Shown here one piece after another: positions 2,684 to 27,170 of a stretch of DNA of 29,240 nt. How positions within the stretch are numbered: position 1 is the stretch's first letter; every line of letters starts with the position of its first letter. The DNA is taken from UHGV virus genome UHGV-0275034; one strand, given 5' to 3'. This DNA comes from a virus. The translations under genes and the position numbers were made by a program. The notes under the pieces are model-generated. The model did not search any database and was not told the origin of the DNA. It worked only from the letters and a program-made list of their open reading frames with translations.

Positions 2684-2852
2684 CCCATCCCAATCCCTTC
2701 AATACCAGAAAGAAAGCGTCGAGCGGGCTTTAACGTGCGCTAACTGCGGTCAGAAGCTGCATGTGCTGGAAGTTCACGTGTGTGAGCACTGCTGCGCAGA
2801 ACTGATGAGCGATCCGAATAGCTCAATGTACGAGGAAGAAGACGATGAATGA
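2676..2852 (+). CDS. ninF: NinF (58 aa, Cys-rich)
   Basis: Below the ORF-track cutoff; translated by hand as [58 protein letters not shown]; matches my recollection of lambda NinF. Confidence 0.7.
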   Translation: MLSPSQSLQYQKESVERALTCANCGQKLHVLEVHVCEHCCAELMSDPNSSMYEEEDDE

Positions 2853-3567
2853 GTTAATAAATGGCAATGCCATCAAAATGACAAGCATTGAAATCGCTGA
2901 GTTGGTGGGTAAGCGTCATGACAATGTGAAACGTACCATCGAAACGCTGGCTAAGAATGGTGTTATCCGGCTTCCTCAAATTGAGGATTGTGGAAGAATC
3001 AATGGGTTAGGCTTAAATCAAAGTTTTTGTGTGTATGCATTCGAAGGCGAACAAGGAAAGCGAGACAGTATTGTCGTTGTAGCCCAGTTGTCGCCGGAAT
3101 TCACCGCTCGTCTTGTTGACCGTTGGCGAGAGCTTGAAGAAACTGCGGTTAATATCCCCAAAACGCTACCAGAAGCGTTGCGCCTTGCTGCTGATCTTGC
3201 TGAGCAGAAAATGCAACTGGAAAACCAGCTCGCAATTGCCGCACCTAAAGTTGAGTTTGCCGATCGCGTTGGCGAGGCCAGCGGAATTTTGATTGGAAAC
3301 TATGCAAAGGTTGTTGGAATTGGTCCAAACAAACTGTTTGCGTGGATGCGCGATCACAAAATCCTTATTGCTTCAGGTTCCCGGCGCAATGTGCCAATGC
3401 AGGAATATATGGATCGCGGCTATTTCACAGTGAAAGAAACAGCGGTCAACACAAATCACGGAATACAGATATCGTTCACCACAAAAATCACCGGGCGTGG
3501 TCAACAGTGGCTGACCAGAAAGCTGCTCGATAACGGAATGCTGAAAGTAACAGGGGAGGCTGCTTAA
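2845..3567 (+). CDS. Rha-family phage regulatory protein with C-terminal KilA-C/ANT domain (antirepressor-like)
   Basis: N-terminal region has the Rha signature (TSIEIAELVGKRHDNV); C-terminal half resembles the ANT/KilA-C antirepressor domain. Confidence 0.65.
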   Translation: MNELINGNAIKMTSIEIAELVGKRHDNVKRTIETLAKNGVIRLPQIEDCGRINGLGLNQSFCVYAFEGEQGKRDSIVVVAQLSPEFTARLVDRWRELEETAVNIPKTLPEALRLAADLAEQKMQLENQLAIAAPKVEFADRVGEASGILIGNYAKVVGIGPNKLFAWMRDHKILIASGSRRNVPMQEYMDRGYFTVKETAVNTNHGIQISFTTKITGRGQQWLTRKLLDNGMLKVTGEAA

Positions 3568-5773: not shown

Positions 5774-6285
5774 GCGCGCCTGACGAGCCCATGAGGGACG
5801 AAACGCATTAGCGTCGTGCGGAGTATCCCCAGCCGGGGAATAACTGGATACCAGGGGAGACAACCCTAAGCGCATTTACGAGTGTGTTTAGGGCGTGGGT
5901 CGGCAATGACTCCCTGTGCAGCCGACATCTGGCCCGGCAACATACAGTGCTCCTTCCGTTGTGCTGAATTAAGCGAATACCGGAAGCAGAATCGGGTCAA
6001 CAAATGCGTACAGGCGTCATCGCCTCCCAGTAACAGCACACCCAAACTGAGCCGTAGCCACTGGCTATCCTGAACTCATCAGTGATAGTTACGCTGCGGC
6101 CTTCTATACATGACCTTCGTGAAAGCGGGTGGCAAGAGGCTGCGCTAACAACCTCCTGCCGTTTTGCCCGTGCATATCGGTCACGAACAAATCTGATTAC
6201 TAAACACAGTAGCCTGGATTTGTTCTATCAGTAATCGACCTTATTCCTAATTAAATAGAGCAAATCCCCTTATTGGGGGTAAGAC

Positions 6286-18402: not shown

Positions 18403-19875
18403 TTGGCTACATGGCAACAGGCTGGTAATTCAGGCGCGCTTCTTGCCGGGTTAGGCGGCATGAACTCCAACGCTCCAAGAGCAAGTGATGCAGACGCCAC
18501 GCTTGCATACATTCGACAGAATAACGAGATGGAGCGTTCAGGACGTAATAACGTTGGCTTGCAGGCTTTGCAGGGCATTTCATCTGTCATGGATATGTAT
18601 AAGCAGATGGATCAGCAGAAGCGACAGCAAGAGTTTCAGCAGGCTTATGCTGATGCATATACATCTGGTGACCGCGATGCAATGCGAAAACTGGCATCAC
18701 AGTATCCTGAGCAGTTTGACGCTGTAAGAAACGGCATGAAATTTGTCGATGAAGACCAGCGTTCCACTGTCGGCACACTGGCAGCAAGTGCCAGACTGGC
18801 AGCTTCATCTCCAGAAGCCATGATGTCATGGTTGCAGAACAACTCATCTGAGCTTACTCGTGCCGGAGTAGACCCTCTGGATGTGGCGAAAATGTATCAG
18901 CAAAATCCACAAGGTTTCACAGAGTTTGTTGATCACCTTGGAATGGCTGCTCTTGGTCCGATTGATTACTTCAATGTTCAGGACAAGATGGCTGGTCGTG
19001 AAATTGACCGAGGAAGGCTGGCAGAGACAATCCGCAGCAATCAGGCTGGAGAGGCGCTTCAGGCGAGAGGGCAGGATATTAGCCGAGCAAATGCGTTAAC
19101 GTCAGCATATGCACCAACAGCTGCAATGCAGAATTATAATCAGTACGCGCAAATGTTAAAGGCGGATCCCGATGGTGCAGCGGCATTTGCGGCAGCGGCG
19201 GGAATTAATCCCAATGCTAAGAAATTACTTAAGGTTGAAACCAATCCTGATGGCTCGGTAACTAAGTATTACACCGATGGCAGCGAGGAAGCCGGAAAAC
19301 TAAACCAACCTATATCTGGTGATGGCATTAAACCAATTAGCTTGCCACAAGCGCAAAGCATCATAGATAAGGCTAATGAGGGTTCCAAGAAGGCGGCAGG
19401 ATTTGCTTTGCGATTAAAAGATTCAATGGACTCAATGAATCAGCTTAGTAAAAGCATTGACCCTAAGCGAGTTGCATTAATAAATCGCTCTCTTGGTGAT
19501 GGGACTATTGCAAATTTAAGCCTATCACCAGCGGAGCAGCAATATATGGTAAATGCGAGAGACGCCTTGTATGCAATTTTGCGCCCAGAAACAGGTGCAG
19601 CAATTACTCTGCCAGAGATGCAGGAGTATTCCAAAATGTACCTGCCTCAGCCCGGTGATTCCAAGGCTGCTACTGAAACAAAAATGCGAAAAATGCAGGG
19701 CCAATATAACTCATTACGTGGTCAGTCTGGTCGCGTTTATGATGCTTTGGTGGTTTCAAGTGCTGCAAATAGTCAACAACAGAGCAATAGCCAACAACCG
19801 GCAAATACCCAACAGCAGCAGAGTCAATCCGGATCATATACCTCAAAATCAGGCATTCAATTTACGGTGGAATGA
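18403..19875 (+). CDS. Ejection protein, P22 gp20 homologue
   Basis: 490-aa product in the gp7-gp20-gp16 order; the start may be an alternative codon a few nt upstream, closer to GGAGGTG at 18381. Confidence 0.7.
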
Positions 19876-21719
19876 TGAAAGTAACTGCAAACGGTAAGAC
19901 ATTTACCTTCCCTGATGGTACGAGCACGGAAGATATTGGCACCGCCATTGATGAGTATTTTGCTGGTCAGGCTGTTCAGCAACAAACAGTTAATCAGGCC
20001 AATAATGAACCAGCACGTGAAGAACCATCATTGATGCAACAAGCTGGCGATTGGCTCACAGGTGCTCAAAGTGCAGGGCAAATTGCAGAACAGGCTGGTC
20101 GTGGTCTGGTAAACATACCATTTGACGTATTGCAGGGTGGCGCAAGTCTGATTAATGCAATCAGCCAGGGGCTTGGTGGCCCCAAGGTTTTGGATGATGT
20201 TTATCGCCCTGTCGATCGACCGACAGACCCTTATGCGCAAGCTGGAGAAACAATTGGCGGGTATTTAGTTCCAGGAGTTGGAACGGCAGGAAGCATGGCT
20301 ATTGGATCACTGGCAGAAGCCGCAAACCAGAAAGGTGATTTCGCGCAAAATGCAGCCATAAATGCCGGAGTTAACCTTGCCGCTCAGGGTGTTCTTTCCG
20401 CAGCAGCAAAGGGAATAGGGCGTGGAATAACGGCTATAAAAGGCGATATCGCGCCAGAAGTAGCGAAAAAAATTGCCACCTCAGAATCAATGGGTGTGAC
20501 GCCAATGACATCTGATGTCATCCCACCGAAAAATGCTTTCACTCGTGGCCTTACTCAGGATGCCGAGGGGGCTTTGCTCGGGACAGGCTCAAAGCGAGCT
20601 GAGCAATATGCAACGCGTAGTAAGCTGGTAAGTAATTATTTTGACCGTTTTGGTGAGTACAACCCTGATGATGTGGTGAAATCTCTGACCACCACGTTAA
20701 GGGGGCGGAAGGATGCCGCTGGCGCTGTTATCAATGACGTCACCAATAAAATGGGTAATGCCTCAGTTGATACCACAAATACCATGAATGCTCTGAATAC
20801 AGCGATCGCAAGACAGGAACGGCTTGGGACATCTGCCAATCAAAGCCTGCTTACATCCTTGCGTAACCTACGTGAAGAATTAGCAAACCCTGCAACTGAT
20901 TTGGATGTTACGTTTGATCTCTTGCGTCAGCACAGAACAGCATTTAGATCTAATGTTCAGGGAGATGCTATGGTCTTCCCCAACCAGGCAAAAGCAGCTA
21001 CCAATATGGTAGAGAATGCAATGTCAAAAGACCTTCGTAACGCAGTTGCTAAAAACCTCGGTGCATCAGACGCAGCAAAATACCTTAAAGCAAATTCCGA
21101 TTATGCAAACGTTTATAATAAGGTGCTTAATAAAAACATTGCTAACAAGCTCAACAAGGCAAGCAGTGAAGCCAGTCCTGAACTTATAAATACCGTTGTA
21201 TTAAGCAGAAAACCATCTGACGTGAAACGAATCTGGAGCGCATTGGATGATAAAGGGAAAGATGCTATGCGTGCAGCTTACGTCAGCAAAATAGCGGAAA
21301 AATCCGGTGACTCTCCAGCCAAGTTCATCACTGAAGTTAATAAGCTGAAATCTCAGTCAGGCGGTGAAATTTACAACACTATTTTTTCTGGAAAGCACAT
21401 GAAAGAGCTTGATGCTCTTCATGAAGTTCTACAGCAAACAGCAAGGTCAGACACCGCAAATGTAGTAACTCAGACGGGGCAATCGCAAGCCAACAGGATA
21501 AGGACGATTGGCGCAACTGCGACTCTTGGCGTATCAATGGGGCTTGAGGCTGGTTTCGGTGCAATGATGCGCTTGTATGAGTCCAAAGCAGCAAGGAATG
21601 CTCTCTTACGTTTGGCAAACACCAAAGCAGGAACGCCAGCCTATGAAAGAGCGCTAAATAATGCTGCAAATGCGATACGCCCTATACTTTCAAGCCAAAT
21701 TACAGCAGAACAGCAATAA
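19872..21719 (+). CDS. Ejection protein, P22 gp16 homologue
   Basis: 615-aa product, close to the roughly 609 aa I recall for P22 gp16; start overlaps the gp20 stop (ATGA). Confidence 0.75.
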
Positions 21720-21733
21720 AAGATAAGATATAA

Positions 21734-22219
21734 CTACCTGATATTACTGCTACTGTTGCATGTTACCGTGTTTCCAAATCCTGAATTGCAGTTTGTATAT
21801 GTGTCAACGCGTGTTGGGTAAGGTTGAGTTATAACAGGCTGGCGCGCTTTTTGCTCGATCGCTTGCATTGTGTTTACAGCCTGATAATTCAATAAAGCCT
21901 GCTGGAATGCTTGGCTTTGCGCTATTTGTTGGGCTTGTTCTTGGCTTTGTAATTGAACATAAAGATTCTGAAGTTCAAGTCTTGCCTGTGTGTCACTTAT
22001 CTTGCCTTCATCGACACCTTGCCCGAGCATCTTCGCAGCAAGGACATACAGCTTAGGTGTTGGTGCTGATGCCATGCGAGAGTCGTTCTTCAAGCTGGCA
22101 TCAAGGCAATTAGCCATATCGCTAAGCTTTGGATAGCGTTGCTCGCAACTTGCCTGATAGTCGCTTACTTTTGCGCACCCAGCCAGCAGAAGCGGGATAA
22201 TTAACAGTGATTTTTTCAT
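21734..22219 (-). CDS. Predicted lipoprotein (162 aa) with Gln-rich central region
   Basis: Start set at the internal ATG (complement of 22217..22219), which has AGGAGA about 10 nt upstream; signal peptide plus lipobox MKKSLLIIPLLLAGC; convergent with gp16. Confidence 0.7.
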   Translation of the reverse strand: MKKSLLIIPLLLAGCAKVSDYQASCEQRYPKLSDMANCLDASLKNDSRMASAPTPKLYVLAAKMLGQGVDEGKISDTQARLELQNLYVQLQSQEQAQQIAQSQAFQQALLNYQAVNTMQAIEQKARQPVITQPYPTRVDTYTNCNSGFGNTVTCNSSSNIR

Positions 22220-22253
22220 ATAATTAACTCTCCTTAGTTTTGCGCAGGATACC

Positions 22254-22619
22254 ATGAAAAAAGTTAACATTGGAAACGTACCAAAGATGCTAGTACCGCT
22301 CTTTGAGAGCGGTACAATTGTGTTTTGTAGAGACTTTCCAGAATGGCAACGCCTGCATCAAAAACTTGGCGTTGACGTGCATGACTCGGACGCCAACGGA
22401 GCGTCTCATACAATGAGTAGCGAGAATGGTGTTTTGCATGTGATAGGCGTGTTCAATGGCAAACTATCTACTATTGCCCATGAGTGCGCTCACATGGCAT
22501 TCGATATCTGCTCAAGGGTCGGTGTTGATGTTGAACCAGGAAGAGCCAACGAGACTTACTGCTACTTAATGAGCAGGCTTGTTGAGTTCTGCGAGCGACA
22601 TATCAAAAAGCCGGAGTGA
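22254..22619 (+). CDS. Small protein (121 aa) carrying an HExxH motif (HECAH)
   Basis: ATG 22254 with AGGA upstream; divergent from the lipoprotein gene with only 34 bp between the two start codons; motif IAHECAHMAF suggests a zinc metallopeptidase-like fold. Confidence 0.55.
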   Translation: MKKVNIGNVPKMLVPLFESGTIVFCRDFPEWQRLHQKLGVDVHDSDANGASHTMSSENGVLHVIGVFNGKLSTIAHECAHMAFDICSRVGVDVEPGRANETYCYLMSRLVEFCERHIKKPE

Positions 22620-22630
22620 TCCGGCTTGAT
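22606..22630 (-). terminator. Hairpin terminator between convergent genes (run of T on the minus strand)
   Basis: 8-bp stem AAGCCGGA/TCCGGCTT with loop GTGA; the + strand stop codon lies in the loop; TTTTT follows on the minus strand. Confidence 0.6.
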
Positions 22631-22632
22631 TA

Positions 22633-22812
22633 TTACTTTTTGCTGTCTGGAGTTCGCTTATCTAATACCCAGCCATGACCTGGCTTTGTTGTTGGTGGAA
22701 GCCTTTCGTTGTCCTTGACGGTGGCAAAATTGTCTTTCTTACCGCCGCGCGGGCCAACTTCTTGGTATATTCCGCCGTTTTTTCCTGTGTTTTCACCTGG
22801 TTTTTTCGCCAT
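22633..22812 (-). CDS. Small Lys/Gly-rich hydrophilic protein (59 aa)
   Basis: Start at the internal ATG (MAKKPGENTGKNGG...) with GAGGT upstream; followed by a terminator hairpin; no family assigned. Confidence 0.5.
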   Translation of the reverse strand: MAKKPGENTGKNGGIYQEVGPRGGKKDNFATVKDNERLPPTTKPGHGWVLDKRTPDSKK

Positions 22813-22902
22813 GATATACCTCAACATACACCCGTTATTGGGCGATTAAATATTGATCTCATTTTATAAGTAGTCAATATGGCCCAGGTAAATGCAAAAA
22901 TT

Positions 22903-22926
22903 AACCCACCGTCAGGTGGGTTTTTT
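22903..22926. terminator. Bidirectional hairpin terminator overlapping the mnt stop codon
   Basis: Stem AACCCACC/GGTGGGTT with loop GTCA, flanked by AAAAATT on one side and TTTTTTG on the other. Confidence 0.6.
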
Positions 22927-23163
22927 GTACAAATCCTTCAGCGTATCAAACACCATCTTCTTAACAAGTTCGGACTGCTCATCAGCGATGCGTTCCGCAT
23001 CGTCTCGATAGCCTGAAATTTTGGATGGCTTTGATACAGCATCAGTAACTATCTGAACTAATTCTGAATTAAGAGAGCGGCCATTGGATTTGGCTCGCTG
23101 TTTTAGTTTTTCCTTTAATTCGTAAGGTAGCCGCAGATTAAATTGCGGGTCATCTCTTCCCAT
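22912..23163 (-). CDS. mnt: Mnt repressor (ribbon-helix-helix, immI region)
   Basis: 83-aa product that matches P22 Mnt as I recall it, especially the C-terminal GYRDDAERIADEQSELVKKMVFDTLKDLYKK. Confidence 0.85.
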   Translation of the reverse strand: MGRDDPQFNLRLPYELKEKLKQRAKSNGRSLNSELVQIVTDAVSKPSKISGYRDDAERIADEQSELVKKMVFDTLKDLYKKPT

Positions 23164-23226
23164 TCTTGATGCCTCGCTTTTGTGAGTGGATCGGCATCTT
23201 ATTATCTGCTGGTTGCATCCTCAATA

Positions 23227-23241
23227 AGACCACAGTGGTCT
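23227..23241. promoter_or_regulatory. Candidate Mnt operator: perfect 15-bp palindrome AGACCACAGTGGTCT
   Basis: Perfect inverted repeat in the mnt-tailspike intergenic region; its CCAC-N-GTGG core resembles the P22 mnt operator as I recall it. Confidence 0.55.
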
Positions 23242-23309
23242 CTTTGTTTGATTAATAATGCATCACTGTGGCAATGCTGCGGCGATTCCTTGTATCTGGA
23301 GCAAATTAA

Positions 23310-24746
23310 ATGACAGACATTACAGCCAATGTTGTAGTCAGCATGCCTTCGCAACTCTTCACTATGGCTCGTTCTTTTAAAGCCGTAGCTAATGGAAAGA
23401 TTTATATCGGTAAAATTGACACTGACCCAGTAAATCCTGAAAACCAGATTCAGGTTTATGTAGAGAACGAAGACGGCTCTCATGTTCCCGTTTCGCAACC
23501 AATCATCATTAACGCCGCTGGTTACCCTGTATATAACGGACAGATTGCCAAATTCGTAACTGAGCAAGGCCATTCTATGGCTGTTTATGATGCGTATGGT
23601 GCACAGCAGTTCAAATTCCCAAATGTGCTGAAGTATGACCCGGATCAGTTAAGAGTAGTTTTGACTGGACAGTCTGGTGATGGACTTAAGAATTTTTATG
23701 CTGGCTCAGGATGGACTGGTTCAGATGCAGCTGGTGACAATATTTATAACAATGAAACTATCATATATAAAAATGCTACACGACAGAGATTCTCCATACC
23801 AGAAACACCAATTCCAGATCCCATTATTTGGCTGGAAAAAATTAGTTCTGCAACTAGGGATGACGGCATCAAACGATGGGATCAGGGGGTAATTTATAAC
23901 TCTTTGCGCAAGGTGTCAGGAAGTGCATATACATGCACAACTACAAGTGTTGCTAAGCATGAGGGAGGGAATGGGCATTCAATTGGTCACCACATGCGTG
24001 GAGAATCAAGAAATCCGCAAGCCGAAACATGGGGGGGGTGGTCATATGGTGCAGTATTAGGAGATGCAGTGCAGAATGGAGCGATTAGCACTATTGCACA
24101 TGAATTTAATCTGAATAATCGAGGTCCCGATAAAGGATGGATGGAGAATGCACTGCAAGGATCTGTAAGAGGGTTGGTATGTGTAACTCAGGATAAAAGC
24201 AATCCAGTAACACAGATGATTACCATCGGAAGAGGGAGTGAAGCTCCAAATGGTTATATCTGGACAGGAATGTTGTTTAGAGGTAATTCTATTTCCACTC
24301 CAACAGAGGAACTAACCGAGGTAGGTAATGGCGAATACATCAGACTTGAGGGATCTCTATCATCTGGAGCTGCAAACGGCATTAGATTTAGAACAAATTA
24401 TTTTAGGAGTGGAATTTCATTTTCTGAAGCTAGATTTTCAAACAACTGCGCAATTTTGATGGGCGACAATCAACGAATTACGGTAGGAACGGGCCCGGCA
24501 AATACAACACATTTGAGTTTCAACAGGGCTGAGAACTGGGCTAACTTCAACAACTTAAGAATACGACTTAATGGCAATCAAGTTATTTCAGAGAGGAGGA
24601 CGGGATGGGGATCGCCAACCGGCACCGTATCCCGAGCAGCATTTAACTCTGGAACAATAACTCACGAAGATTTAGCAAAGGTAGTTGCAGCATTAATTCA
24701 GGACTTACATGCTTCAACCGGGCATGGATTAATTGGTTTAACTTAA
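23310..24746 (+). CDS. Tailspike / receptor-binding protein (P22 gp9-like N-terminal head-binding domain, divergent short distal domain)
   Basis: First roughly 115 aa closely parallel the P22 gp9 N-terminus ([11 protein letters not shown] ... [13 protein letters not shown][13 protein letters not shown] ... LKYDPDQ); the remainder is unrelated and AT-richer; total 478 aa. Confidence 0.8.
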
Positions 24747-24758
24747 CAGGACAATAAA

Positions 24759-24944
24759 ATGGATAAGCAAACTATTCAAAATATCATGCAGTTTATGCTT
24801 CGCGTAAATCTTAGCGGTCATGAAGTTCCTGCTTTTAATTCTTCAATGAATGCATTACAGGCTGAATTAGATCGCGAAAATGACCAGCCACTCCAGCGAG
24901 TACTAAATGCTGCTCACAATGAACCTGTTACGGAGAATGATTAA
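24759..24944 (+). CDS. Small hypothetical protein (61 aa) downstream of tailspike
   Basis: ORF with a weak RBS, tightly linked to the next small gene. Confidence 0.4.
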   Translation: MDKQTIQNIMQFMLRVNLSGHEVPAFNSSMNALQAELDRENDQPLQRVLNAAHNEPVTEND

Positions 24945-24945
24945 A

Positions 24946-25152
24946 ATGAAAACAGAAAGCGGTGCTTTCAAATTTGACGGTGGAGAGGTTAAAGGAATTA
25001 ACAGCATTGCCATTATTGAGGTGCGCGGTAACGGGTGGGGCGCTGGTTTTTATTTTAAGCCAAATACTGCCGTTAAAGTCGATGGTAATAAGCCTGATCT
25101 GAACGAGTTTCGTGATTCCTGCGCATTGTCGGTAATGACTCCAACTTACTGA
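24946..25152 (+). CDS. Small hypothetical protein (68 aa) downstream of tailspike
   Basis: ATG 24946 with GGAGA 9 nt upstream; begins 2 nt after the stop of the preceding small ORF. Confidence 0.45.
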
Positions 25153-25307
25153 TAGTGTTTTATATTCAGATAATGCCCGATGACTTTGTCATGCAGCTCC
25201 ACCGATTTTGAGAACGACAGCGACTTCCGTCCCAGCCGTGCACCAGGCTGGTTCAGAATCATGTTCTGCTGATTTTGTCCGGCGGCAGAACGCAATTTGC
25301 CAGAGTG

Positions 25308-25433
25308 ATGGGAAGGGCATTAATCACGGATGATGGTGAAGCGATCGAAGTGGAGGCGGCGGAAGAGGTGGAGGTGATGTGGCGTGTTACGTACTTCATC
25401 AACAGCGCGCTGCAGGATGGCGTGGTGGTGTGA
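25308..25433 (+). pseudogene. Coding-like fragment resembling the 3' end of a protein gene (41 codons from an internal ATG)
   Basis: Open frame ending ...VMWRVTYFINSALQDGVVV*, with no plausible full-length gene upstream (in-frame stop at 25209); a degenerate second copy lies at 25532..25678. Confidence 0.25.
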
Positions 25434-25688
25434 TGGGTGGCATTACCCCACCTTTTCATCAATCCAGTCCGCCCACCACTGCAGCATGTCTCTGCATTTA
25501 TCGTAGTTGATGCATCACTATCACCCTGTAATGGCTTATTACTGGTTTGCATACAGGTAGGCATGAACAGATACCTACACATGAAGATGGAACTAGTCCG
25601 GATGCGATATTTTTGGTGATCACGTACATCATCAACGAAGCGCGTTATGTTGAGTTTTATGACTGCCAAGTAATGTGAAAATTGCGAT

Positions 25689-25991: not shown

Positions 25992-27170
25992 ATGGCTATA
26001 AGCGACACAAAACTGCGTACTATTTATGGTAAACCATATTCGGGCCCACAAGAAGTGGCTGATGCCGATGGCCTCAGCGTACGAATTTCACCGAAGGGGG
26101 TCATCCAGTTCCAGTACCGCTATCGCTGGCATGGCAAGCCTAATCGACTTGGGCTTGGTCGATACCCATCCCTGTCTTTGAAGGATGCCAGACAGATCAC
26201 TGCTGACTTGCGAAAGCTCTATTTCTCAGGAACGGATCCACGCACCTATTTTGAAGAGAAGGTGGAGAACTCCATGACGGTCGCCCAGTGTCTCGACTAC
26301 TGGTTCGACAACTACGTCTCTACAACTCTCAGAGAAAAGACCCAGGCACTTTACCGATCAACGGTTATGAAGCGCATGCATGACGCCTTTCCTAATCGTC
26401 CGGCATCTTCTATCACGGTTAAGCAATGGGTTGACCTGCTTACCGAAGAAGAAAGAGATAATCCACGCCGAGCAAGGCAGGTGCTAAGTCAACTAAGATC
26501 AGCAATAAGTTGGTGCATGCGGCGTCAGTTGATAGATAGTTGCGCAATTATGAGCATCCAACCAAGGGACTTCGGCTCCCGCGCTGAGGTAGGGGATCGG
26601 GTACTGTCGTATCACGAACTGGCTAAGATTTGGCTTGCTATTGAAAGAAGCCGTGCGTCTACGTCAAATAAGCTCCTTCATCAGATGCTTATGCTGTGGG
26701 GGGCGAGGCTCTCAGAGCTTAGGCTGGCAACAAAGACAGAATTTGACCTGCTGGACAACGTATGGACCGTACCGAAAGAGCATAGCAAGATGGGTAATGT
26801 TATCCGCCGTCCAATCTTCGAACAAATTAAGCCTTTTCTCGAAAAAGCCATGACAACGTACAATGATGTTCTTTTCCCTGGAGAAGACATAAACAAACCG
26901 ATCAGCATCGCTGCAGCCAACCGATTCGTAAATAGAATAAGGGGAGGGATGGATCTGGGTTACTGGCGAACACATGATTTCAGAAGAACGCTTGTTACAC
27001 GTCTGTCCGAGATGAATGTCGAGCCTCATGTTACTGAGCGAATGCTCGGTCATGAACTTGGCGGGATAATGTCAGTATACAATAAACACGACTGGATAGA
27101 GGCTCAGCGCAAAGCGTATGAGCTTCACGCTGATAAATTGTTCTGGCACATCAGGAGCATTTCTGATTAA
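25992..27170 (+). CDS. int: Tyrosine site-specific integrase (P4-type)
   Basis: 392-aa product with catalytic-domain signatures (RLSELRL, HDFRRT, LGHELGG ... SVYNKH); lies adjacent to the arm-type repeats. Confidence 0.9.
   Translation: MAISDTKLRTIYGKPYSGPQEVADADGLSVRISPKGVIQFQYRYRWHGKPNRLGLGRYPSLSLKDARQITADLRKLYFSGTDPRTYFEEKVENSMTVAQCLDYWFDNYVSTTLREKTQALYRSTVMKRMHDAFPNRPASSITVKQWVDLLTEEERDNPRRARQVLSQLRSAISWCMRRQLIDSCAIMSIQPRDFGSRAEVGDRVLSYHELAKIWLAIERSRASTSNKLLHQMLMLWGARLSELRLATKTEFDLLDNVWTVPKEHSKMGNVIRRPIFEQIKPFLEKAMTTYNDVLFPGEDINKPISIAAANRFVNRIRGGMDLGYWRTHDFRRTLVTRLSEMNVEPHVTERMLGHELGGIMSVYNKHDWIEAQRKAYELHADKLFWHIRSISD

Follow-up and report, generated by a model that had tools for sequence, protein, structure and literature searches.

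The mnt gene and its neighbours

We analysed a stretch of viral DNA of 29,240 nucleotides (UHGV-0275034), in the following called the window, in which a gene for a P22-type Mnt repressor lies between a gene-16 homologue and a tailspike gene (Table 1). The gene-16 side is represented by the ORF of a DNA transfer protein at 19872..21719. On the other side a gap of 146 bp (23164..23309) separates mnt from the ATG of the tailspike gene at 23310. A PADLOC search with mnt and its neighbours gave no match to a defence system.

Table 1. Features of the region between mnt and the tailspike gene, in window coordinates.
Feature	Position	Strand	Basis or remarks
Bidirectional intrinsic terminator tMnt, AACCCACCGTCAGGTGGGTT	22903..22922	both	Terminator-like scores on both strands
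mnt, 83 aa	22912..23163	minus	ORF; Pfam PF03869 and PF11423, PDB 1MNT and 1QEY
Inverted repeat GATGCC-N19-GGCATC with short inner stem	23168..23198	both	Spans the mnt Shine-Dalgarno and the Pmnt -10
mnt Shine-Dalgarno GAGG	23172..23175	minus	Read from sequence; 8 nt before ATG; invariant in alignment A1
Degenerate Pant homologue TCGGCA (23191..23196)-17-TGCATC (23214..23219)	23191..23219	plus	Positional alignment with P22 TTGACA-17-TATATT
Predicted Pmnt -10 TAAGAT (P22: TATCAT)	23196..23201	minus	38 nt from operator centre, as in P22
Predicted Pmnt -35 TTGAGG (P22: TTGAGA)	23219..23224	minus	17-bp spacer
Putative Mnt operator, 17 bp, AAGACCAC-A-GTGGTCTC	23226..23242	both	Conservation and covariation with Mnt residue 6
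Conserved tailspike leader	23263..23309	plus	Contains CACTGTGG (23264..23271) and Shine-Dalgarno GGAG (23298..23301)
Tailspike ORF, 478 aa	23310..24746	plus	PF09008, E 3.6e-65

Residues 3-50 of the mnt product match the Pfam family Arc (PF03869, E 2.8e-22), thus the Arc-like ribbon-helix-helix DNA-binding domain is present, and residues 53-80 match Repressor_Mnt (PF11423, E 2.2e-18), the C-terminal tetramerisation domain. PDB entries 1MNT (residues 3-77, E 2.8e-34) and 1QEY (residues 53-83, E 3.1e-12) were matched as well. Together with an identity of 75.9% to P22 Mnt, these matches bear out the earlier note, made from the letters of the DNA, which had named the protein a P22-type Mnt repressor. 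In nucleotides, mnt matches P22 at 93-100% over its 3' third but at only 53-77% over the 5' part.

Mnt is a long-standing model protein for quantitative protein-DNA recognition. As a family criterion we used the DNA-facing beta-strand positions 2, 6, 8 and 10 of P22 Mnt (Arg, His, Asn, Arg). In the 1MNT alignment the corresponding strand, RDDPQFNLRLP, is collinear with that of P22 and keeps Arg2, Asn8 and Arg10, but has Gln6 in place of His6; it further carries Leu9 and Leu12 where P22 has Phe9 and Met12. Residue 6 is called the 'master residue' of specificity in the title of a published paper.

The loop of the tMnt hairpin contains the TGA stop of mnt (22912..22914). Behind the hairpin the plus strand has a T-run; in front of it lies an A-run that reads as a T-run on the opposite strand. 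With terminator-like scores in both directions, a bidirectional terminator over the mnt stop was recognised correctly in the earlier note. Homologous hairpins are annotated as terminators in HK620 (tMNT), epsilon34 and L.

The inverted repeat in front of mnt has outer arms that are invariant across nine divergent orphan lineages, that is, lineages with mnt but no arc and ant. The two strands gave fold z-scores of -2.2 (plus) and -1.3 (minus). We did not adopt a structured-RNA reading of the element: it is 93% paired but almost invariant, and its covariation is not significant, as 55 of 500 shuffles attained the observed score.

The tailspike protein has a P22-type head-binding domain (aa 1 to about 120). 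PDB and PHROG matches were confined to the first approx. 125 residues, and beyond the head-binding domain no recognisable relative was found. The leader of the gene is 89% identical to the final 47 bp before P22 gene 9, and about 1100 E. coli genomes share a homology that starts at 23263. This bears on a half-site related to the operator that had been proposed at about 23265. The motif CACTGTGG does exist, but it begins exactly at the start of the homology common to all P22-like tailspike leaders, including that of HK620, which has no mnt, and its variants among orphan loci (CACTGCGG, CACTGTAG and GCCGTAGC) break the GTGG core. We therefore do not count it as a further Mnt site. The minimum-energy fold suggests that operator and 'half-site' pair over a long range in the RNA, a reading that was discarded too (z -1.8, no covariation with the operator centre base).

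A palindrome at the position of the P22 operator

Upstream of mnt lies the perfect 7+1+7 palindrome AGACCACAGTGGTCT (AGACCAC-A-GTGGTCT, 23227..23241, centre 23234), as the earlier note had reported, in exactly the position of the P22 operator. In the P22 record the operator reads AGGTCCACGGTGGACCT and lies 57 bp from the mnt ATG, here AAGACCACAGTGGTCTC at 62 bp; the CCAC-N-GTGG core claimed to be shared with P22 is therefore real. Length and symmetry are also those of P22, thus a 17-bp two-fold symmetric operator with this core is found upstream of and divergent from mnt, as expected for the family. The arms differ from P22 by symmetric changes at +/-5 (A/T swapped) and +/-7 (G:C to A:T). The outer half-site AAGA appears closer to the TAGA box of Arc than to AGGT of P22 Mnt. 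With P22 Arc, Mnt shares the ribbon-helix-helix fold and the Gln-Asn-Arg triad (PQFNLRLP here, PQFNLRWP in Arc), but Arc is a dimer of 53 aa without the tetramerisation domain, and its operator, placed within Pant between the -35 and -10 hexamers, does not have the form of a CCAC-N-GTGG palindrome.

Four perfect 7+1+7 palindromes were observed in the window against approx. 1.9 expected, so that one somewhere in it is unremarkable; the probability of finding one within a given 146-bp gap is 0.009. The window holds a single match to this palindrome even when 3 mismatches are allowed, and a 99%-identical proxy prophage likewise has one operator. Among 35 unique orphan sequences from 123 loci, CAAT-AAGACCAC-N-GTGGTC is near-invariant. 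Any of the four bases occurs at the centre, to the right of the operator the sequence cannot be aligned between orphan subtypes, and a few singleton loci have one arm base changed. We concluded that the palindrome is almost certainly a true Mnt operator of altered specificity; binding of Mnt to it, and the sign of autoregulation, we infer from these sequence comparisons.

In a collection of species-representative genomes, which includes no genome carrying this prophage, the Mnt protein found no match, and for the 18-base operator pattern CAATAAGACCACNGTGGTC there were just eight matches, all in unrelated taxa and attributable to chance. For the pattern AAGACCACNGTGGTCT, approx. 0.02 chance sites are expected genome-wide in LF82.

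Promoters of the 146-bp interval

The predicted leftward promoter Pmnt begins, with its -35, 1 bp from the 17-bp operator and 2 bp from the palindrome, and the operator centre lies at about -45 from the likely start site. The TTG of the -35 is invariant across the 35 unique orphan sequences, and of 46 distinct intergenic variants of orphan loci, 45 have TTGNGG-17/18-TA(A/T)GAT in one and the same place, the sole promoter-like element conserved among them. Pmnt scores just 8/12 and was missed by a standard scan, which counts against the reading we prefer below; the assignment therefore rests on positional homology. As the operator adjoins the -35, Mnt could locally act on its own transcription only.

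In complete immI modules of both specificity types, a Pant of the form TTGACA-17-(T/C)AT(A/C/T)(A/T)T scores 10-11/12 and ends 15-16 nt left of the operator centre. A Pant overlapped by the Mnt operator in this way was not found in the window. The Pant homologue has no intact -10, both essential bases A2 and T6 being absent; judged by its sequence, Pant has been lost from this locus. Readings of the interval as sigma-54 promoter, PhoP box or extended -10 element were tried by eye and rejected, since they neither fitted nor had a conserved counterpart in the leader of P22.

The earlier note had offered two targets for Mnt, a promoter reading into the tailspike gene or mnt itself. For the second, the conserved leftward promoter at the P22 distance speaks in favour. 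The first would require a rightward promoter in the interval, either a Pant that survived or one formed anew, through which Mnt keeps the tailspike low in the lysogen and releases it when Mnt falls. The operator does sit where that of P22 overlaps the Pant +1, and TATAAC or TATAAA is kept at the Pant -10 position in some orphan lineages. Against it, no rightward sigma-70-like promoter with a score of at least 8/12 was found in the intergenic region of the window, where TCGGCA-17-TGCATC is all that corresponds to Pant; candidates are missing in 35 of 46 distinct orphan variants and their position is never conserved, in sequence that does not align between subtypes. A Mnt-controlled tailspike promoter is thus unsupported by the sequence of the interval, and we regard this reading as unlikely.

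Loss of arc, ant and sar

The earlier note had further stated that arc and ant are absent, and this was confirmed. In tblastn searches P22 Arc matched only the ribbon-helix-helix domain of Mnt itself, and three Ant proteins gave no significant match. Their best hits (E 0.02-0.04) fell at 3253..3351, 20 kb away, in the KilAC domain of a gene at 2845..3567 that encodes a Rha and KilAC ('ANT') domain protein. Control of this 'anti-repressor'-family gene by Mnt was considered and rejected, as no operator-like site lies near it. The arc-ant DNA of P22 has no homology in the window except for the last 47 bp before gene 9. The arc-ant junction, which encodes sar, is absent from the window, and an Rfam search of 22000..24000 at E up to 1 found no family, sar included. 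With the palindrome as positional and sequence homologue of the P22 operator and with arc and ant gone, the description as an immI region that has lost its antirepressor fits.

Covariation of the operator with Mnt residue 6

Mnt with Gln6 pairs with AAGACCAC-N-GTGGTCT and Mnt with His6, as in P22, with AGGTCCAC-N-GTGGACCT. Apart from the singletons mentioned above, all 62 of 62 IMG/VR loci with the strand MGRDDPQFNLRL have AAGACCAC-N-GTGGTC. Of 16 loci with MARDDPHFNFRM, 12 have AGGTCCAC-N-GTGGACCT with arc and ant behind it; in the remaining four this site is missing and the arrangement differs. Seven more loci combine MARDDPQFNLRM and arc plus ant with AAGACCACGGTGGTCT. The putative operator thus covaries with residue 6. 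A third operator class, TACC-N5-GGTA, was also seen. The first approx. 10 codons of mnt travel together with the intergenic region across lineages that differ in the rest of mnt.

The seven loci bear on the question whether the orphan Mnt could be a trans-acting immunity protein, silencing the ant promoters of incoming or co-resident phages with the same operator and so blocking induction by a foreign antirepressor. A classical role of P22 Mnt is the repression of ant in superinfecting phages. In the seven loci, which include ES18/SPN3UB-like siphovirus contigs approx. 82% identical to Salmonella phages, the identical operator stands before arc and ant and downstream of a strong Pant. E. coli prophages of the UTI89 type have retained a P22-type Mnt but lack an operator of the P22 type within 2.5 kb, which suggests action in trans, and a target of this kind would explain purifying selection in the absence of a local one. 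However, no complete Gln6-type immI was found by megablast in 5426 complete E. coli genomes, nor in named phages, and mnt RNA is at background in lysogens of a close relative grown in LB (see below). SPN3UB itself was considered as a possible Salmonella example of a Gln6-type immI and rejected because its Mnt-like protein and its operator are both different. We judge immunity in trans to be improbable.

Comparison with known relatives

Mnt-only arrangements are already in the literature (PMC2629481, PMC8022706, PMC9928086). Two of these reports describe Mnt-only 'ant morons' in ST64T, ST104 and L (PMC2629481; PMC8022706), and the layout is annotated in SE1 and ST160. In all five phages mnt adjoins and diverges from the tailspike gene with no arc or ant; the order gene-16 homologue, mnt, tailspike without them is also that of ST160, L, 720R6 and Gally. 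The operator goes unmentioned in the available text of Villafane 2008 (PMC2629481) and Zaworski 2020 (PMC8022706). These Salmonella phages have the Gln6 recognition strand, the operator arms, Pmnt and the inverted repeat in common with the window. Their operator is a perfect 17-bp palindrome, AAGACCAC-C/T-GTGGTCTT, and the intergenic region is 11 bp shorter, without the T-rich stretch after the operator. In an alignment of the window with ST160 and L (A2), the region from the mnt 5' end through the right operator arm and the tailspike leader are conserved, and nothing differs but an insertion of 11 bp behind the operator. L Mnt has strongly diverged over its C-terminal two-thirds (37-77% nucleotide identity).

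Among the closest known systems are Gally (OV696608.1), a prophage of E. coli LF82 (Misson 2023, PMC9928086), and vB_EcoP-720R6. The Mnt protein and the 146-bp intergenic region of Gally, operator included, are 100% identical to those of the window, and the tailspike head-binding domain is shared, but the tailspike C-terminal domain differs. To the left Gally has an epsilon34 gp15-like gene on the tailspike strand, where the window has P22-like hkcC and orf59a and an extra terminator. HK620 shares hkcC, an orf59a remnant, the tMNT hairpin and the tailspike leader with CACCGTGG, but mnt and operator are deleted and the terminators alone are left. In HK620 the region can be seen in a state of true decay.

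Whether the L/ST64T-type mnt is a decaying remnant or has a function was posed as a question in PMC8022706. For the window, the remnant option would make the cassette a leftover of immI without present function. The loss of arc, ant, sar and Pant agrees with it, as do the bare terminator remnants of HK620 and the changed operator arms of the singleton loci. Yet mnt is under purifying selection: dN/dS against the ST160-type allele is 0.076 at a dS of 0.51, and in deeper pairs synonymous sites are saturated at a dN of 0.2-0.35, so that the protein is conserved across synonymously saturated lineages. No variation is seen in the recognition strand, in the arms of the operator or in the hexamers of Pmnt, in contrast to the bases beside them and the operator centre, which are free to change. 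Intact copies of the cassette occur in approx. 112 of the 5426 complete genomes of E. coli, and many Salmonella phages whose tailspikes are unrelated have one too. Decay, already disfavoured by these observations, is highly improbable, and purifying selection with an invariant operator and promoter argues for a functional mnt in the L/ST64T type as well.

Transcription in Gally

Gally is the sole relative for which expression data and a knock-out of mnt exist. In RNA-seq from macrophages its tailspike gene rose 21-fold (log2FC 4.42, q 9e-72), with the upstream late genes, injection genes 11 and 12 among them, at background (PMC9928086). The tailspike gene must therefore be served by some promoter that lies downstream of the injection genes; in the gene-level table one in the interval and one of the upstream moron gene are indistinguishable. 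Since the Gally tailspike is transcribed without the late operon, the picture of a tailspike expressed only by late read-through is incomplete, and a promoter of non-consensus type in the interval is conceivable.

This independence would suit a rightward promoter in the interval, as would a shift of approx. 6-fold in the tailspike/gene-14 ratio between 1 h and 6 h in macrophages, which is unlike a constant read-through from gene 14. On the other hand, the RNAs of mnt and tailspike rise together, the opposite of simple repression. The mnt gene, transcribed on its own strand, showed a 40-fold rise in macrophages, and its RNA was at background in a lysogen in stationary LB culture (PMC9928086). 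P22-like constitutive expression in the lysogen was thus not seen, a point against the reading preferred below. The regulated rise again speaks against decay. Deletion of mnt left the survival of LF82 in macrophages unaffected (PMC9928086), consistent with the lack of an antirepressor target; as the one assay done, it also suits decay.

Another conceivable role is that of a roadblock or attenuator: Mnt bound 76 bp before the tailspike ATG could hold up rightward read-through from the late operon or a moron and so tune tailspike dosage. In the orphan state mnt is always directly upstream of the tailspike gene (62 loci) despite mosaic flanks, and a T-rich run stands behind the palindrome of the E. 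coli subtypes, which has a terminator-like score on the plus strand. But the Salmonella subtypes have no T-run and the local hairpin is short, with a loop of 1-3 nt. Antiterminated polymerase generally ignores such obstacles. Expression ratios in Gally also fail to track mnt RNA in the direction expected. Villafane et al. (PMC2629481) speculated along similar lines for P22; they note that the ant moron of P22 influences the frequency with which late transcripts extend to gene 9, with a possible part for Mnt and Arc. For the window we consider a roadblock very unlikely.

Discussion

In our preferred reading, to which we give a probability of about 0.6, the region is a self-contained Mnt cassette of repressor gene, operator and own promoter, the remnant of a P22-type immI after loss of arc, ant, sar and Pant. 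Mnt, a ribbon-helix-helix protein tetramerising through its C-terminal domain, would bind the 17-bp AAGACCAC-N-GTGGTCT with one dimer per half-site, immediately (1 bp) upstream of the -35 of TTGAGG-17-TAAGAT, in the geometry of P22. The lineage would have a specificity of its own, with Gln6 for His6 matched by the symmetric operator changes. During lytic growth, antiterminated late-operon transcription would reach the tailspike gene, crossing two terminators and running antisense through mnt; a Mnt-controlled promoter in the interval would be neither needed nor visible. The likeness to P22 immI in protein, position between gene 16 and gene 9, operator, promoter distance and terminator is set against the missing arc, ant, sar and strong Pant.

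A cassette that only regulates itself offers no obvious benefit yet is under selection, so a further target or role must exist. It is tentatively conceivable, though we think it unlikely, that the orphan Mnt has been repurposed as a condition-responsive regulator, either gating, from its single operator, the tailspike and the downstream moron gene independently of the late operon or acting as stand-alone immunity against the antirepressors of foreign phages with its own operator type. If so, mnt transcription would be switched on in host-like environments such as DMEM and macrophages, and recombination would pass the recognition strand from phage to phage in one unit with operator and promoter.

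The arrangement is a documented variant at the most variable spot of P22-like genomes, and its exact sequence is already present in a studied phage. The pairing of Gln6 with AAGACCAC and of His6 with AGGTCCAC, together with the TACC-N5-GGTA class, would constitute a natural specificity switch that is directly testable. Of the observations made here, the one that could lead further is the late-operon-independent transcription of the tailspike gene in macrophages.

The mnt locus and the earlier descriptions of it

The window comes from a P22-like (Lederbergvirus) prophage, and the closest complete genome is that of E. coli EF5-18-41 (99% identity across window 18808..25503, divergent outside). 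Its Mnt shares 76% identity with P22 Mnt and 100% with the Mnt annotated in the E. coli LF82 prophage Gally, and it matches both solved Mnt fragments. The 146-bp gap between mnt and the tailspike gene holds a perfect palindrome, the single such site in the window even at 3 mismatches; any given 146 bp would contain a perfect 7+1+7 palindrome by chance with a probability of 0.009. When P22 Arc and three Ant proteins were compared with the window, nothing significant was found except Mnt's own fold, and no sar RNA was found by Rfam. All elements listed in the earlier note (mnt, the gap, the palindrome, a half-site motif, the terminator and the absence of arc and ant) proved to be real. The absence of ant holds for the gene of the P22 immI module (mnt, operator, Pant, Pmnt, arc, sar and ant), but not for the domain family, as the nin region encodes a Rha/KilAC protein matching phrog_63 'anti-repressor Ant' (E 2.4e-95). 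No Mnt operator-like site was found near this ORF, and it was rejected on that ground as an immI-type ant under Mnt control. A second operator was found neither in the window nor in a 48-kb proxy prophage.

Features of the mnt-tailspike region and related loci in the window
Feature	Position	Strand or direction	Description
Rha/KilAC ORF	2845..3567	+	240 aa; Phage_pRha and ANT/KilAC domains
Terminator hairpin	22903..22922	scores on both	mnt stop codon in loop
mnt ORF	22912..23163	minus	83 aa; Pfam Arc and Repressor_Mnt; 1MNT and 1QEY
Inverted repeat	23168..23198		GATGCC-N19-GGCATC, inner 4-6 bp stem; covers mnt Shine-Dalgarno and predicted Pmnt -10
Predicted Pmnt	23224..23196	leftward	TTGAGG-17-TAAGAT, 8 of 12; exact P22 Pmnt distance
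Palindrome	23227..23241		AGACCAC-A-GTGGTCT
Leader motif	23264..23271		CACTGTGG
Tailspike ORF	23310..24746		P22-type head-binding domain
P4-type integrase	25992..27170		downstream of tailspike

The arrangement is already known in kind and layout, and a published phage has exactly the same one. A mnt gene next to the tailspike with neither arc nor ant, here called orphan, has been annotated for Salmonella phages ST160, SE1, L and VSe13, Shigella phage Sf101, and E. coli phages vB_EcoP-720R6 and Gally. It was treated by Villafane et al. (PMC2629481) and Zaworski et al. (PMC8022706), and the Gally mnt was deleted by Misson et al. 2023 (PMC9928086). Window-type mnt with its operator was present in 112 of 5426 complete E. 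coli genomes, joined to a tailspike in 110.

Of the 478 tailspike residues, the first ~125, the head-binding domain, are the only ones with Pfam, PHROG or PDB relatives; the C-terminal ~350 aa gave no match in these databases. In the 99% identical EF5-18-41 prophage the tailspike gene is labelled an incomplete pseudogene by PGAP (NCBI) and is followed by an IS1 fragment. Past 25503 the window was collinear with no complete E. coli genome, and the right end of the prophage may be rearranged.

Operator and specificity class

The P22 operator, AGGTCCACGGTGGACCT, lies 57 bp from the mnt ATG in the P22 record, and that of the window, AAGACCACAGTGGTCTC, 62 bp from it; the window differs from P22 symmetrically, at positions +/-5 and +/-7 relative to the centre. 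We surveyed operator against Mnt N-terminus at 78 IMG/VR loci, 62 with MGRDDPQFNLRL and 16 with MARDDPHFNFRM. Each of the 62 MGRDDPQFNLRL loci carried AAGACCAC-N-GTGGTC (a few singletons had one altered arm base), and the tailspike was next in line. The N-terminus MARDDPHFNFRM was accompanied by AGGTCCAC-N-GTGGACCT, then arc and ant, at 12 of 16 loci; the remaining four lacked this operator and had a different small ribbon-helix-helix gene next (UTI89-type layout). A pattern scan yielded 7 further loci in which a Mnt with Gln at residue 6 (MARDDPQFNLRM) stands beside AAGACCACGGTGGTCT, here with arc and ant, and with unrelated C-terminal parts of Mnt. Gln6 thus goes with AAGACCACGGTGGTCT in both orphan and arc/ant loci, and residue 6 tracks the operator in three different contexts. 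By general recognition rules, the change from His (P22) to Gln alongside G:C to A:T would be chemically sensible. Among 35 unique orphan intergenic sequences (123 loci), CAAT-AAGACCAC and GTGGTC were near-invariant, the centre base was A, C, G or T, and no alignment was possible between orphan subtypes to the right of the operator. Judged by these patterns, the palindrome behaves as a true Mnt operator of a putatively distinct specificity class.

The proposal that CACTGTGG is a related half-site for Mnt was rejected. It is part of the universal tailspike leader, because 23263 is where homology starts, both to the final 47 bp ahead of P22 gene 9 and to ~1100 E. coli genomes. HK620 lacks mnt and carries CACCGTGG at this position, and the variants among orphan loci (CACTGTGG, CACTGCGG, CACTGTAG and GCCGTAGC) are unrelated to the operator. 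P22 (locus L004) holds the leader start AAAATTCACCGTAGCCA twice, at 5838..5855 and 5947..5964, with a ~90-bp insert containing a hairpin in between. The likeness of AAAATTCACCGTAGCCA to the Mnt operator centre (CACCGT.G) is probably a coincidence.

Promoters in the intergenic region

P22 and the complete Gln6-type modules have two promoters to the left of the operator centre: a strong rightward one (TTGACA-17-TATATT/CATCAT/CATTAT/TATCTT, 10-11 of 12), ending 15-16 nt from it, and a weaker leftward one, ending 37-39 nt from it. By sequence, the leftward promoter alone remains in the window. Of 46 distinct orphan variants, 45 have the leftward element in one and the same place; 35 have no rightward candidate, and the position of such candidates is never conserved. 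The Pant position of the window reads TCGGCA-17-TGCATC, and its -10 lacks the final T in every orphan lineage. The degenerate Pant position and the fixed leftward element together indicate that the orphan lineage lost Pant along with arc and ant, and kept Pmnt and the operator. It had been suggested that Mnt controls a promoter into the tailspike, or only itself. Self-control agrees with the conserved Pmnt, whereas the tailspike promoter finds no support in the sequence, as the Pant position is degenerate and no rightward candidate keeps its place. The sole local target of Mnt would be its own promoter, Pmnt, whose start site and sign of regulation we infer; the operator centre lies ~45 bp upstream of the predicted start.

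No orphan lineage, the distant class of IME10, Sf101 and VSe13 included, shows any change in the outer arms of the inverted repeat at 23168..23198. Fold z-scores were modest and covariation was not significant; the repeat may act as a protein site or as an RNA element.

Selection and mosaicism of mnt

Between window-type and ST160-type mnt alleles dS was 0.51 and dN 0.039 (ratio 0.076), and in deeper orphan lineages synonymous sites were saturated with dN only 0.2-0.35, values pointing to selection on mnt. The gene is mosaic. All orphan lineages share the first ~10 codons and the entire intergenic region at 93-100% nucleotide identity, and there is a recombination joint inside mnt relative to loci L002, L004 and L006. 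The 3' third of the window mnt is 93-100% identical to P22, and for the same part of phage L the identity is only 37-67%. With a common 5' end and intergenic region and a differing remainder, the recognition strand, operator and promoter travel as a unit, which argues against the locus being a decaying remnant. In HK620, by comparison, the terminators alone are left, the picture of true decay.

Expression in Gally

The intergenic region of Gally is base-for-base identical to that of the window, and strand-specific RNA-seq of LF82 has been published (PMC9928086, S1 Table).

Expression of Gally genes in LF82, log2(fpkm+5)
Gene	LB stationary	DMEM 1 h	DMEM 6 h	Macrophage 1 h	Macrophage 6 h
mnt	3.7	5.7	7.0	9.0	8.4
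Tailspike	3.9	4.9	5.65	6.7	7.8
Moron gene 14 (upstream, tailspike strand)	5.5	10.0	10.4	11.0	9.45

The late injection genes 11 and 12 stayed at 2.5-4.15 under all conditions. Expression of mnt was at background in LB and induced 40-fold in macrophages, and the tailspike was induced 21-fold without the late operon. Tailspike transcription being independent of the late operon, some promoter downstream of gene 12 feeds it, most simply by read-through from gene 14. The tailspike/gene-14 ratio shifts ~6-fold between time points, and so leaves room for a start site in the gap, such as a Mnt-controlled tailspike promoter would need. Levels of mnt and tailspike RNA climb in parallel, which does not look like simple repression. 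Deletion of mnt leaves survival in macrophages at the wild-type level (PMC9928086), and this fits a prophage without a Mnt-controlled antirepressor.

The five rightmost Gally genes, 13, 14, 15 (mnt), 16 (tailspike) and 17, on both strands, are 6- to 40-fold up in macrophages, and their rise begins in DMEM; the late operon stays silent. The pattern suggests that the region is under a shared, host-dependent control, e.g. relief of silencing.

Other Mnt classes and overall reading

UTI89-type prophages (UTI89, L220, 2479..3254; E67, L221; L076-L079) carry a P22-type His6 Mnt with no AGGTCCAC-type operator within 2.5 kb. Their mnt follows another, different ribbon-helix-helix gene in tandem, and that gene faces arc and ant across a region that holds two ATGCGTACC repeats. 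Such an operator-less mnt may act in trans. Complete Gln6-type immI modules (IMG/VR loci L132, L140, L208, L190, L198 and L206) consist of mnt, AAGACCACGGTGGTCT, arc and ant with an intact promoter, TTGACA-17-CATYAT or, in L206, TATCTT. They sit in ES18/SPN3UB-like siphovirus contigs, or in contigs only weakly similar to Erwinia and Providencia phages; L208, the one representative used as query, matched nothing in complete E. coli genomes. The operator-less UTI89-type Mnt and these modules keep alive the idea that such repressors act in trans on other phages. A third Mnt class, with the recognition strand YDEAQFHLRLP (L008, IME10; L009, Sf101; L010, VSe13), is also orphan and adjoins the tailspike. 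Just upstream of the mnt start, the operator position is taken by a different palindrome, TACC-N5-GGTA.

The best-supported mechanism for the orphan locus is a self-contained cassette of Mnt, operator and Pmnt with its own operator specificity, which would be what remained after loss of Pant, arc, sar and ant, while the tailspike would be served by transcription originating upstream.
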